A stretch of 64,000 bases of DNA from sequence record PX880103.1. One strand, 5' to 3'. Shown piece by piece: positions 29,923 to 45,573 of the stretch. A program made the translations under genes and the position numbers. This DNA is from a phage. Position 1 is the first letter of the stretch. Every line of letters begins with the position of its first letter. The notes below the pieces were generated by a model. It was given only the letters and a program-made list of their open reading frames with translations, made no database searches and was not told the DNA's origin.

Positions 29923-30267
29923 TTAAAAGAATTTAAATTTTTTCTTTGACCTTTTATTAAATGCATCTTGCAGTTGCATTGTAATACATTTTTCTACATG
30001 AGGAGCTAACTCAGCTTTTCTTTCTTGGTCAAGAACAGCAAAGTCCATTACAACCTTTCCATCAACCCAATCCAGTTTAGTTACATACACTATATGTGTA
30101 GAACCATCTTCTAGTTTAATGACAATCTCCTGGATAACATTTTCCATAGCGGATTTAATTATCTTAAGAGACTCATTAAAAAGACGTTCTTTTCTTTCTT
30201 CTTCCCCCTCCGAAGAGGGGGATTCATCGATAATTTCTAGATCTAAATCTAAATCATCTTTATTCAT
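29923..30267 (-). CDS. 40: gp40-like head vertex assembly protein (114 aa from ATG)
   Basis: Position between 41 and uvsX; ATG at 30267 preferred over the GTG track start at 30285; acidic N-terminus. Confidence 0.5.
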   Translation of the reverse strand: MNKDDLDLDLEIIDESPSSEGEEERKERLFNESLKIIKSAMENVIQEIVIKLEDGSTHIVYVTKLDWVDGKVVMDFAVLDQERKAELAPHVEKCITMQLQDAFNKRSKKKFKFF

Positions 30268-31441
30268 TAAATTCTTCCATATCACTTAACTGTTCGAGGT
30301 CAGTTTCTAAATCAGCTGCTGATTTACTTTTACTTTCTGGAGATTTAAATTTTTCAACCTTTGAGTTAATCAATTCATCAACTTCAGCTTCAACAATTTC
30401 ATTACTATCAATAGCACCTAACTGATAAGCACGTTTAATAGCATCTCGGAATGGTTGATGTTTAAATAAAGGACCCCAGAATGTAGTGCAGTTGGTATCT
30501 TTTGCACGCCAAGATTTTTCTTCACGAATCATCTCGCCGGTTTCTTCATCAAGAAATTCACGAGCATACCAACCGTTCTTAGGTTTTACCACAAATCCTA
30601 ATTCTAGAGCCATATCTAACAATCCAGAATAAGGATCGATACCACCGTCAAATTTAACATCAATAAAGAATTTACTTTTTTCTTTAACGGTACGAGATTT
30701 TTCTACATTTAGAACAAATTGATACCCTTGAAGATCGGAACCATCTTTAATCTGGCGCTTACCGATAATGAATACAGTATCAGCCGAATACATTACGCCT
30801 GTACCACCTGTCATCACGGTTTTACTAAACATTTCAATTGTTTCAATTGTATGGTTAACCGCAACACATGGAATATTTTTAATGCTAAAATAAGGAGTAA
30901 CAATACGGAATAATGACTTCAGTGATTTAGCACGAGTCATATCTGCCACAGATTTTTCATTCAAGGCATCTTCCGTTTCTTTCTTAGAAGCCATATTACC
31001 GATTGAGTCGATGAATACAATAACCTTTTCACCACGCTCAATAGCTTCAAGCTGGTTCACCATATCAATTTTCAGCTGTTCAACTGACTGGATTGGCGTA
31101 TGAATTACTCGTTCCGGGTCAACTCCCATGGATCGCAAATAAGCTGGAGTAATACCAAATTCGCTATCATAGAATAGACAAACCGCGTCAGGATATTTGT
31201 TCAAATATGCCGCAACCATAGTCAAAGACATATTTGATTTAAAGTGTTTAGAAGGTCCTGCGAAAATAGTTAAACCAGACTGCATACCGCCATCAATCGC
31301 GCCAGAAATAGCGATATTAAGCATTGGGATTTTTGTACGGATTACATCCTTTTCATTAAAGAATTTAGACGTAGTCAGTTCAGCAGTCATTTTAGAAGTG
31401 GAAGCTTTAATCAAACGGGATTTTAAATCTGCAATAGACAT
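30260..31441 (-). CDS. uvsX: RecA-like recombinase UvsX
   Basis: 393 aa; RecA fold with Walker A GPSKHFKS; size as T4 UvsX; ATG confirmed. Confidence 0.9.
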   Translation of the reverse strand: MSIADLKSRLIKASTSKMTAELTTSKFFNEKDVIRTKIPMLNIAISGAIDGGMQSGLTIFAGPSKHFKSNMSLTMVAAYLNKYPDAVCLFYDSEFGITPAYLRSMGVDPERVIHTPIQSVEQLKIDMVNQLEAIERGEKVIVFIDSIGNMASKKETEDALNEKSVADMTRAKSLKSLFRIVTPYFSIKNIPCVAVNHTIETIEMFSKTVMTGGTGVMYSADTVFIIGKRQIKDGSDLQGYQFVLNVEKSRTVKEKSKFFIDVKFDGGIDPYSGLLDMALELGFVVKPKNGWYAREFLDEETGEMIREEKSWRAKDTNCTTFWGPLFKHQPFRDAIKRAYQLGAIDSNEIVEAEVDELINSKVEKFKSPESKSKSAADLETDLEQLSDMEEFNE

Positions 31442-31518
31442 TCATTTTTTCCATAGGCATCATTATATTTTCCTCACTGGTTAAAGATAGAGTAATTATA
31501 ACACAATAAATTTAGGCA

Positions 31519-32361
31519 TTAATCAACTGCTATTGGATGAATAGCATTAAACTTATGAAATGCTTCTGATTTTTCTTTACGCGAAACACACATGCGAAGA
31601 ACCTTTAGTGGTTCATCTTCTTCACCCAACGATTTTCGTTTTTCAATATTCGATGTTTTCCAACGAGCTTGCTCTGGAAACTCTCTATTGATTTGCTCAA
31701 GCGCTCTATTATGTTTAGAATTACTACGAATTGAACTGCACCCGCCAGGAGCTTGTGCTTTTCCAGATACAACCAGATATTTGAACAAGGCCAAATGCGG
31801 ATAACCTTGATTAATTAAATTGAGAAATGCATACATATCTTCGCATAAATCAATTTTTCCATACCCAATTTGTTCTGTCGTAAGTTTTCCGAGGTCATAC
31901 CATGTATTCGTGAATCCATATGAATTTTCACGATAATTACCCCAAGATGAAGTAATTTTAAAAATTGGTAAACGAGCATGACCATGATAATACCCGCAAT
32001 CCATGGCATCTTCAACGTATTGAATCAATTCATAGAACTGTTCACGAGTTAATTGATTAACTTTATCCACACAACGACGATCATCTCGTTTTCGCATTGA
32101 ACTCATACGAATAGTAGTATCATCGTCAATCATCCAGATTCGTTGACCTGCATACATATCAGTAATTGCTTTACGAGTACCGGCAATTCCGTTTACATCA
32201 TCAGGAATAGTTATAATTTTAGCTCTAGACCCATAGGCATCATAATAAGCTTTTTCTTCATGTTCACGCACTACAATATGCGGTTCATAATCAGTCGGAA
32301 ACATATCAAGGGCAGAAACTGCCCCTACGCGCTGATAACTTGGAATTACAAATTGAATCAT
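31519..32361 (-). CDS. Putative DNA glycosyltransferase, GT-A fold (DxD), in the beta-gt position
   Basis: About 280 aa from ATG at 32361 (overlaps gene 42 stop); N-terminal VIPSYQR and WMIDDDTTI motifs typical of family-2 glycosyltransferases; does not resemble T4 beta-gt. Confidence 0.5.
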   Translation of the reverse strand: MIQFVIPSYQRVGAVSALDMFPTDYEPHIVVREHEEKAYYDAYGSRAKIITIPDDVNGIAGTRKAITDMYAGQRIWMIDDDTTIRMSSMRKRDDRRCVDKVNQLTREQFYELIQYVEDAMDCGYYHGHARLPIFKITSSWGNYRENSYGFTNTWYDLGKLTTEQIGYGKIDLCEDMYAFLNLINQGYPHLALFKYLVVSGKAQAPGGCSSIRSNSKHNRALEQINREFPEQARWKTSNIEKRKSLGEEDEPLKVLRMCVSRKEKSEAFHKFNAIHPIAVD

Positions 32362-33098
32362 TTCCACTCACCGTTATAATCTTTTTTCACAATATGAGTT
32401 TCGCCAGTATTCCACCAATGATCAACCAAGTAAAAATGACGAGAATATACATGAAGACTTCCAACATTCCATATAATAGAACCTGCTTTATACTGACGAG
32501 TTGAATCGCCTGCATTCAAATCAGATACTAATTTATCTAATACGTATTTTTGCCATGCATAATCATTACGGAATCCGAAGACTACGTCATTTGAACGCAT
32601 GCTTACTACTGCATTGACTTTCTTATCACGAATCAGGTACTGTACTGTATTCGTACACATGAAATCTGACATACCATCTTTATTGTAGTCAAACTGCATG
32701 GATGGACGAGTATAAATCATGATACCGCGTCGAGAATCAGGATTTTGACCAAGTTCAGCTAAACACATATCATACTGGGCATAGTTATCTTCTGACCAGA
32801 TAGCCCAACCATAATTCGAGTTAATTTCACCTTTAGAAGATGCTACTTGTTGCCAAATCTTCGGTGTTTCACCCGGAATATCTTTAACGAACAAGCTCTT
32901 AGATTTATACCATTCAAGTTCACGCTGAATGTATTCATCATTAAGAGCGCCAAAAATAAACGGTTCATCTGCTATAAATGATGCGCCAATAATTTCAATA
33001 GTTTTAACACCAGTTTTATCAACTACGAAATCTTTTTCTTTTAATGCAAGCCCCAAATGAAGACGGATTTCTTCAACTGTCATAGAGTCACTAATCAT
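32358..33098 (-). CDS. 42: dCMP hydroxymethylase gp42
   Basis: 246 aa as in T4 gp42; thymidylate-synthase-like; ATG confirmed. Confidence 0.9.
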   Translation of the reverse strand: MISDSMTVEEIRLHLGLALKEKDFVVDKTGVKTIEIIGASFIADEPFIFGALNDEYIQRELEWYKSKSLFVKDIPGETPKIWQQVASSKGEINSNYGWAIWSEDNYAQYDMCLAELGQNPDSRRGIMIYTRPSMQFDYNKDGMSDFMCTNTVQYLIRDKKVNAVVSMRSNDVVFGFRNDYAWQKYVLDKLVSDLNAGDSTRQYKAGSIIWNVGSLHVYSRHFYLVDHWWNTGETHIVKKDYNGEWK

Positions 33099-33251
33099 TT
33101 AAACCTCAATTGATACATTCATATTTAACTTGTAACAGTAATAAACTCCAACCTAAAATAATAGTTGGAATCATAAGAGGAACCGTTACACTATAGTATA
33201 TACTTATTATAACCATCAAGATTAAAAGCAACACTGCTATAATTTTGCTTT

Positions 33252-33503
33252 TCATTCCTTCTCTCTGATGATAATTACTTGATTTGGCTGTGCAGACTTT
33301 TTAGTTTCACCCGCAATTGACCAAATAAATGTAATAAACCAACCAATAATTGACCAGTTAAACAGTAAAGACGTGAAAAAGATTCCTACTGTCGATTTTG
33401 ACCCACGCATCAAGGCGATAAACCACGGAAGCATGTATATAATAATAGCCAACACACCTGAAACTAAAACCATAAAAATTGAACCTGCTATTAAAGTTTC
33501 CAT
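33252..33503 (-). CDS. imm: Immunity protein Imm (superinfection exclusion)
   Basis: 83 aa, two TM helices; size as T4 Imm; ATG confirmed. Confidence 0.8.
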   Translation of the reverse strand: METLIAGSIFMVLVSGVLAIIIYMLPWFIALMRGSKSTVGIFFTSLLFNWSIIGWFITFIWSIAGETKKSAQPNQVIIIREKE

Positions 33504-33510
33504 GTTTTCC

Positions 33511-33891
33511 TCACTTAATCAAATTTTTTACACATGAATTATAAGAATTCACTACATACTCCATCGGAGCATTTTTACCAGTACGCCACTGGTAATTATT
33601 AGCCCAATTTGCCCAAAGTTCTGCGCAGTAGTTTTCAATTTTTTCTTCGCGTGTAATTACATCAGAATTACGATATGCTTGAGCAGATTCATCTGGACGA
33701 ATAGCTTCGTCAAAATTCGCCTGCATTTGTTCTACTGTCTGTTTTGGAGCTTCTTTATAACACTTGACATTAGGATTATAAAATTTGCTTGAACAGTTTA
33801 CAATTTTTCCTACATCAGACTGATTTATTACCGGTCCTTGAGCTACACAACCAGTAAGACCTAATGCAATAACCAAAATAGCGATTTTCAT
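33511..33891 (-). CDS. Putative lipoprotein (126 aa, imm.1 position)
   Basis: ATG at 33891 after leader GGAG (track start at 33903 is TTG in the leader); signal peptide MKIAILVIALGLTGC with lipobox. Confidence 0.6.
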   Translation of the reverse strand: MKIAILVIALGLTGCVAQGPVINQSDVGKIVNCSSKFYNPNVKCYKEAPKQTVEQMQANFDEAIRPDESAQAYRNSDVITREEKIENYCAELWANWANNYQWRTGKNAPMEYVVNSYNSCVKNLIK

Positions 33892-44355: not shown

Positions 44356-44372
44356 AAGGGCCGAAGCCCTTT
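44355..44372 (-). terminator. GGGCCGAAGCCC hairpin overlapping alpha-gt stop
   Basis: aaagggc-cgaa-gcccttt. Confidence 0.5.
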
Positions 44373-45573
44373 ATTTTGTAATAATGTCAAACTGTTCTTT
44401 AAAGCAGAAGCTTGAATCTTGATGCTGATACAAAAATTCATATGCTTTTTCTCGCTCACGGTCATAAAGAGCTCGGTCAGATGACAGTTCTTTAATACGT
44501 TCAAATGTTGATTCCATATCATTTTCATCAAACCAAATGATACCGCTATCATGCGAGGTCAAAGGAGTATTATCAACACGGAATTTTAAATTTTCGCCAG
44601 TAGATTTCCAAAATACTGGAATTGTTCCACATGCACCAAGCTCGAGGTGAGTATATTCTAAAGAACGTTGTAGATATTTTTTATCCAACTTACTCAACTG
44701 ATAACCAAATCCGGATTTACTCATGCGTTCAAGCATTTCGCTATTTACATAGCGATCGAGAATTTGCGTTGGCAAATTAGGAGCAATTTTAATTTGGTCT
44801 ACTTGATGAAGACGATAATACTCGTATGGAATTCCTTTTTCTTTAATAGGAATGAACGCTGGAGAACGTTCCAGACCTTCCATAATAGTACTTAGTCCTG
44901 CAGGTTTAAGATGTTTTTCGTGAAAATCAAACATCTGATAAAAACCTTTCCATGTAGTCGTACGACCAATCCAACGGTTGACATTCATGTTAATTTCAGA
45001 AACATCTTTCCAGTAGGTTGACCGAACCTTCGCAATATCCATAGGAGGCTGAAAGTTATATACTGTCGGCGCTTCTTCAATATCATCAAACAAAGAAACT
45101 GTTTCAGGATACCATTCTTTCATCAGAACTTTATTAAAATCACCATTATCAGAATGGCTAAAAATAACATCAGCTCGACGAACAGTTTCTTCTAATCCCA
45201 AATTTCGGCGCAAAGAAAGAGAAGAATGGTCATGCTGATAAACTACAACACGAACAGAAGGTTTAATGTTATCAATAATTTTTTTATAGTTATTAATAGT
45301 GTCTTCTTCAACTGAAGTAGCAGGAACTGAATTGATAATTAGAATATCACAATCATTTACCAGCTTAAGTGTTTTATCGTATTCTTTTGCCAATAAAACC
45401 GGAATTGAAAATGATTTATAATCATGCGCACAGTTACGAGTAAATGATTTATCTTTGGCATAAACCAAAGTTACTTCATGACCATTTTTAATAAACCAAT
45501 CACGTTGCTCAAGAGAAAATTTAGTTACACCACAACCTTCAAGACCTCGAGCCATAAAAATACATACTTTCAT
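44371..45573 (-). CDS. a-gt: DNA alpha-glucosyltransferase
   Basis: 400 aa; long stretches match T4 alpha-gt (CIFMARGLEGCGVTKFSLEQRDWFIKNGHEVTLVYAKDKSF...); ATG confirmed. Confidence 0.9.
   Translation of the reverse strand: MKVCIFMARGLEGCGVTKFSLEQRDWFIKNGHEVTLVYAKDKSFTRNCAHDYKSFSIPVLLAKEYDKTLKLVNDCDILIINSVPATSVEEDTINNYKKIIDNIKPSVRVVVYQHDHSSLSLRRNLGLEETVRRADVIFSHSDNGDFNKVLMKEWYPETVSLFDDIEEAPTVYNFQPPMDIAKVRSTYWKDVSEINMNVNRWIGRTTTWKGFYQMFDFHEKHLKPAGLSTIMEGLERSPAFIPIKEKGIPYEYYRLHQVDQIKIAPNLPTQILDRYVNSEMLERMSKSGFGYQLSKLDKKYLQRSLEYTHLELGACGTIPVFWKSTGENLKFRVDNTPLTSHDSGIIWFDENDMESTFERIKELSSDRALYDREREKAYEFLYQHQDSSFCFKEQFDIITK

Follow-up and report, generated by a model that had tools for sequence, protein, structure and literature searches.

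The locus between gene 42 and uvsX

The locus between gene 42 and uvsX raises the question of which enzyme this phage encodes at the place where T4 has its beta-glucosyltransferase (beta-gt or b-gt), and of which sugars the hydroxymethylcytosine (hmC) in its DNA would carry. The initial annotation of the window, by which we mean the whole stretch of 64,000 nucleotides analysed here (record PX880103.1), described a glycosyltransferase-like protein of about 280 codons in this slot. The description stands: the reading frame beside gene 42 codes for 280 aa, its product matches PHROG 842 ("beta-glucosyl-HMC-alpha-glucosyltransferase", E=6.4e-89), and its DNA segment is matched in 539 phage records. 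We put the probability at about 0.93 that the gene is a T2/T6-type beta-glucosyl-HMC-alpha-glucosyltransferase gene (ba-gt or ggt) of the Pfam family TAGT, the predicted activity of the product being drawn from near-identity to described enzymes. The argument refers to the following features, given in window positions.

30260..31441, minus strand: uvsX recombinase (Pfam T4_UVSX_C, E=4.7e-39), downstream of ba-gt past a 77-nt spacer
31430..32375, minus strand: cassette differing from T4, with ba-gt and a spacer here and b-gt, a spacer and segA in T4
31519..32361, minus strand: ba-gt (also ggt; Pfam TAGT; beta-glucosyl-HMC-alpha-glucosyltransferase gene), 280 aa plus stop
31837..31842, minus strand: E174-D175, candidate for the catalytic base in an inverting GT-A mechanism (D175 100% and E174 83% conserved)
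32119..32127, minus strand: DDD (residues 79-81) within WMIDDDTTI (residues 76-84 of the ba-gt product)
32329..32349, minus strand: VIPSYQR, residues 5-11 of the ba-gt product, with I6, P7 and R11 conserved across the family
32358..32361, minus strand: ATGA overlap, its TG being common to the ba-gt start codon ATG and the gene 42 stop codon TGA
32358..33098, minus strand: gene 42, dCMP hydroxymethylase, 246 aa (Pfam Thymidylat_synt, E=1.2e-15)
44371..45573, minus strand: alpha-gt (a-gt), 400 aa (Pfam AGT, E=3.9e-237; PHROG 2888, E=1.4e-222)

Counted from an upstream GTG, the open reading frame extends over 31519..32367 on the minus strand and codes for 282 aa; starting at the in-frame ATG at 32361 instead, it codes for 280 aa, as in the RB3 and T2 annotations. 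The ATG is preferred because it is the start annotated in T2 and RB3, because it lies at a proper distance from a Shine-Dalgarno-like GGTGAG (7-12 nt upstream), and because it forms the ATGA overlap with gene 42; the GTG at 32367 was dropped as a start. The overlap, already pointed out in the initial annotation, is real: by direct reading, the minus strand at the junction of both genes is GGTGAGTGGAAATGATT, with the gene 42 stop TGA at 32360..32358 and the ba-gt ATG at 32361..32359. The same 4-nt overlap appears in the annotations of RB3 and T2, and the ATGA overlap is common to T2, T6 and RB3. The arrangement suggests that expression of ba-gt is probably coupled translationally to that of gene 42. 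Promoter-like sites show no excess within 31000..33600 (11 versus 11.3 expected from shuffled sequence), and the one terminator-like hairpin on the ba-gt strand in the same interval lies inside the coding region. This hairpin (GGGCAG-TTT-CTGCCC, window 32307..32327, minus strand), in codons 13-18 of ba-gt and ~35 nt past the start codon, is G+C-rich, which is unusual for A+T-rich DNA, and is found in T6 too.

The layout, with ba-gt between gene 42 and uvsX, is the same in RB3, T2 and T6, and the counterpart of gene 42 is annotated as dCMP hydroxymethylase in all three. The 77-nt spacer between ba-gt and uvsX holds a mini-ORF of 7 codons (ATGATGCCTATGGAAAAAATGA, window 31442..31464, minus strand) that stops one base ahead of the uvsX ATG (TGAATG); the corresponding position of T4 holds segA. 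On the other side, between gene 42 and imm, a hydrophobic ORF of 49 aa (window 33106..33255, minus strand) corresponds to 42.1 in the RB3 annotation and is unannotated in the T4, T2 and T6 records examined. The 400-aa alpha-gt named in the initial annotation proves genuine by its Pfam match, and reads on the minus strand; the plus strand of 44371..45573 contains 16 stops.

Identity and distribution of the gene

The ba-gt product is 98.9-99.6% identical to the beta-glucosyl-HMC-alpha-glucosyltransferases of T6, T2 and RB3, all of 280 aa. The RB3 protein differs at 1 of 280 residues (V101I) and the T2 protein (MH751506, LC348380) at 2 of 280 (R11H, P251S); the T6 protein (MH550421) differs by Y40N, D55G and R106H, together with an amber codon at position 10. 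This degree of identity bears out the suggestion that the enzyme is of the T2/T6 gentiobiose type, as a predicted activity. The alignment to T4 beta-gt that had been proposed as a check was run as well, and the enzyme is distinct: no alignment of both proteins is obtained, the best BLASTP match having E=5.7 over 8 residues, and the good alignment that the initial annotation named as grounds for refutation is absent.

A megablast search with the 1.1-kb ba-gt segment matched 539 phage records, 473 of which cover at least 80% of the segment; 444 have 95-99% identity. Many of the matched records name a beta-glucosyl-HMC-alpha-glucosyltransferase or a beta-alpha-glucosyltransferase. The T2/T6-type ba-gt is already known: gene, position, fold and product are all described, and the gene is annotated in hundreds of genomes. 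All three 24-kb thirds of the window are ~100% covered by known Tequatrovirus genomes at 95-97% identity, and no unusual or unmatched DNA was found when the 64-kb window was compared with known genomes. The window is a mosaic whose closest relatives are Paracelsus and ECO4 (1-24000), vB_Eco-B1.1 (20000-44000) and T2 (40000-64000), as is typical of recombination in Tequatrovirus.

Family membership, fold and putative catalytic residues

The initial annotation referred to "family-2 glycosyltransferase" hallmarks, namely the motifs VIPSYQR and WMIDDDTTI. Both motifs are present (residues 5-11 and 76-84), and the part of the claim that concerns a GT-A fold is supported by a match of the predicted model; membership in GT2 at the level of sequence is not. 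The single Pfam match of the ba-gt product is TAGT (PF20691, TET-associated glycosyltransferase), with 38.9 bits versus a gathering cutoff of 27.5 and a profile match spanning positions 2-205 of 205, and PF00535 (Glycos_transf_2) gives no match to the product at E<=1. The same holds for relatives: TAGT is matched by all 78 diverse homologues scanned, and only one of the 78 reaches E=0.0078 with PF00535. The product is therefore a member of the TAGT family and not a formal, sequence-level member of GT2. In a published clustering of structures, TAGT has a GT-A fold and forms a sister group of GT2 (PMC13216743).

A word-indexed protein search gave 11 relatives only; the wider family came to light when 1.84 billion cluster representatives were searched exhaustively, which yielded 336 relatives (clusters) at E<=0.001. 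Of the listed matches, 144 were aligned to compute conservation, and a second alignment comprises 78 sequences. Among the 144 homologues D80, D175 and G207 are conserved at 100%, D79 and G206 at 99%, G186 at 97%, R11 at 96%, R212 at 95%, R63 and D81 at 94% and E174 at 83%; the 78-sequence alignment shows no variation at R11, D80, D175 and G207. The window protein has all of the family residues (R11, R63, DDD 79-81, E174-D175, G186, G206-G207 and R212).

An AlphaFold2 model of the product, based on an alignment of 10 sequences, reaches moderate quality (pLDDT 69.7, pTM 0.72): the N-terminal 80 residues reach a pLDDT of 85-95, and residues 126-151, 203-211 and the C-terminus remain below 50. The model matches solved GT-A glycosyltransferases and consists of a single Rossmann-like nucleotide-sugar-binding domain. 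Sequence searches of the PDB gave no significant solved relative, either for the protein or for the profile of the 78-sequence family, and the best glycosyltransferase match of the family profile is the GT2-like 9jma (E=0.98); the fold assignment therefore rests on the predicted model. According to this model, the ba-gt product is a DxD-type glycosyltransferase of the GT-A fold, and presumably depends on a metal. Its mechanism is presumably inverting, since the donor is alpha-linked and the product beta-linked; this suits a GT2-like GT-A enzyme. Since the family has no solved structure and no significant match in the PDB, roles of single residues are assigned by analogy. The DDD at 79-81 is ~100% conserved and comes after a predicted beta strand (E74-77); given the GT-A fold match, it is expected to bind the metal and the diphosphate of the UDP-sugar. 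E174-D175 is a candidate for the catalytic base, by its likeness to the ED/TED motif found in GT2 enzymes of the inverting type.

Comparison with the T4 locus

In a blastn comparison with T4, the homology of the window runs through gene 42 with 96.4% nucleotide identity, stops at ~32376, and resumes with 86.9% identity at ~31429, 12 nt inside uvsX. The exchanged cassette between these points comprises 946 nt in the window versus 1,941 nt in T4, where segA also sits between uvsX and b-gt and where b-gt lies 23 nt from gene 42. A T4-type beta-gt was sought with tblastn in the 64-kb window (of a genome of ~168 kb) and none was found (best E=1.4). The TAGT gene has been described as syntenic with T4 beta-gt (PMC13390438). 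The vast majority of 753 phage genomes with such glucosyltransferases pair an alpha-gt or a beta-gt with a TAGT gene, and all three types occur in only one of the 753 phages (PMC13216743). As judged from the 539 matched records and from the latter survey, the ba-gt arrangement is that of the majority in Tequatrovirus, and T4 with its beta-gt is the outlier (PMC13216743). Hence the proposal that T4 beta-gt is replaced here is right in that the slot holds a different gene, but the direction implied by it is not: ba-gt is common, and T4 is the exception.

The last 22 nt of ba-gt together with its stop (TTCATCCAATAGCAGTTGATTAATG, window 31517..31541, minus strand) match 24 of 25 positions in T4 (AF158101, 7239..7263; blastn E=5.6e-6). 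In T4 the stretch is located directly upstream of the segA start codon and downstream of b-gt. It looks, from the sequence, like a relic of the ba-gt 3' end, which would suggest that ba-gt was present at the locus before b-gt, or that it was brought in with segA.

Predicted pathway and alternative readings

The proposed pathway has three steps. The product of gene 42 (gp42), encoded directly upstream of ba-gt, would make hydroxymethyl-dCMP for incorporation into the phage DNA; alpha-gt would move glucose from UDP-glucose onto hmC in alpha linkage; and the ba-gt product would place the glucose of a second UDP-glucose on the 6-OH of the first in beta linkage (beta-1,6), giving gentiobiosyl-hmC. 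Both genes for the supply of the acceptor, gene 42 and alpha-gt, are encoded in the window along with ba-gt. In T2 and T6 the TAGT enzyme adds glucose to alpha-glucosylated cytosine, which results in gentiobiosyl-methylcytosine (PMC13216743), and the predicted activity follows from this stated role and from a sequence 99% identical to the enzymes of T2 and T6. Tequatrovirus phages with alpha-gt and TAGT contain hmdC, alpha-glc-mdC and alpha-5-gentiobiosyl-mdC, and no beta-glc-mdC, by HPLC/MS (PMC13390438).

It is highly unlikely that the ba-gt product acts directly on unmodified hmC, replacing T4 beta-gt in function and making beta-monoglucosyl-hmC. The gene does fill the T4 beta-gt slot, and an inverting GT-A enzyme, as inferred from the fold match, would give a beta linkage either way; but the protein is 99% identical to an enzyme described as acting on cytosine that already carries alpha-glucose (PMC13216743), no beta-glc-mdC was seen by HPLC/MS in phages that have this gene set (PMC13390438), and ba-gt has neither sequence nor fold in common with the GT-B T4 beta-gt (PMC13216743). 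That the reading frame is an inactive remnant or pseudogene, retained by linkage alone, is extremely unlikely. Two deposited T6 records (MH550421 and AP018814) do carry apparent lesions in ba-gt, which implies that the gene can be damaged in laboratory stocks, but the window gene is of full length and has all family-invariant residues, an undamaged start codon and a Shine-Dalgarno-like sequence. The T2/T6-type activity on alpha-glucosylated hmC remains the preferred reading.

The T6 lesions are of two kinds. In MH550421 (5138..5980) codon 10 is changed from CAG to an amber TAG and the protein is annotated from Met20, with 261 aa; in AP018814 (5135..5974) one Asp of the DDD is lost in frame, turning WMIDDDTTI into WMIDDTTI in a product of 279 aa. 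Gentiobiosylation is reported to be highest in T6, and these lesions may have arisen by mutation in laboratory stocks or by sequencing error.

Extent of gentiobiosylation

How much of the hmC would be diglucosylated is a question of degree. The reported gentiobiosylation is ~5% for T2 (PMC13390438) and ~72% for T6, with nearly identical enzymes, and the diglucosylated fraction can therefore not be read from the sequence. Among the Durham phages, one class contains hmdC, alpha-glc-mdC and gentiobiosyl-mdC at ~1:2:2 (gentiobiosyl ~2 parts in 5), and a second class contains about one third hmdC and about two thirds gentiobiosyl-mdC (PMC13390438).

The window enzyme might contribute little, as in T2, so that the DNA would carry alpha-monoglucosylated and free hmC with a few percent gentiobiosyl-hmC and would differ from that of T4 mainly by having no beta-glucose. 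Such an outcome we regard as rather unlikely. T2 has a nearly identical gene and is reported to gentiobiosylate only ~5% of its cytosines (PMC13390438), and the side of the window with alpha-gt is closest to T2 (97.4% over 24 kb). Against this, both T2 records carry R11H and P251S, and the window, T6 and RB3 keep the consensus at both positions; moreover, all ten Durham Tequatrovirus phages measured have large gentiobiosyl fractions, ~2 parts in 5 or about two thirds of the modified cytosines (PMC13390438). In both T2 records (MH751506, 5286..6128; LC348380, 795..1637) R11H affects an arginine that never varies among the 78 aligned family sequences. Speculatively, R11H and P251S might be related to the low gentiobiosyl content of T2 (~5%), and the consensus R11 and P251 of the window enzyme hint weakly at a T6-like, high level. 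A tentative extension, possible though doubtful, is that natural or laboratory variation in ba-gt, and not its mere presence, sets the diglucosylated share, and that this phage is then rich in gentiobiose like T6. If this were true, changes of one residue in ba-gt would adjust the sugar pattern, and with it the sensitivity to glucose-directed defences.

Significance

Which host defences a T-even phage evades or sets off is decided by the sugars on its hmC; these defences are the type IV systems McrBC and McrA, the GmrSD-family enzymes and the Brig1 glycosylase (PMC13216743, PMC13390438). The gene set of alpha-gt and TAGT predicts gentiobiosyl-hmC and no beta-glucosyl-hmC in this phage, a prediction that is useful for annotation, for the prediction of host range and for the choice of restriction or sequencing methods. 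The finding is correct but ordinary, and involves no new biology.

Relation to known systems

Besides the T2/T6 enzyme, three known systems can be compared with the one described here. T4 beta-glucosyltransferase (CAZy GT63), like ba-gt, adjoins gene 42 in its coding position, uses UDP-glucose, forms a beta linkage and modifies hmC-containing DNA. The two differ in fold, which is GT-B for T4 beta-gt and GT-A for ba-gt (PMC13216743), and their sequences are without similarity; they also differ in the acceptor, hmC for T4 beta-gt versus alpha-glucosyl-hmC as predicted for the ba-gt product. The inverting GT-A enzymes of CAZy GT2 and PF00535, such as BcsA, TarP and GlfT2, have an identity to the ba-gt product of 6-17% in structural alignments. 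The third is the TAGT family itself, in which the motif set of R, DDD, ED and GG..R is common to the window protein and 144 distant homologues. The family takes its name from members found together with a TET/JBP dioxygenase; for these, the predicted target of glycosylation is the hydroxymethyl base itself. In the present phage, by contrast, the hydroxymethyl group would come from gp42, a hydroxymethylase acting at the nucleotide level, and the acceptor would be a sugar already on the base.
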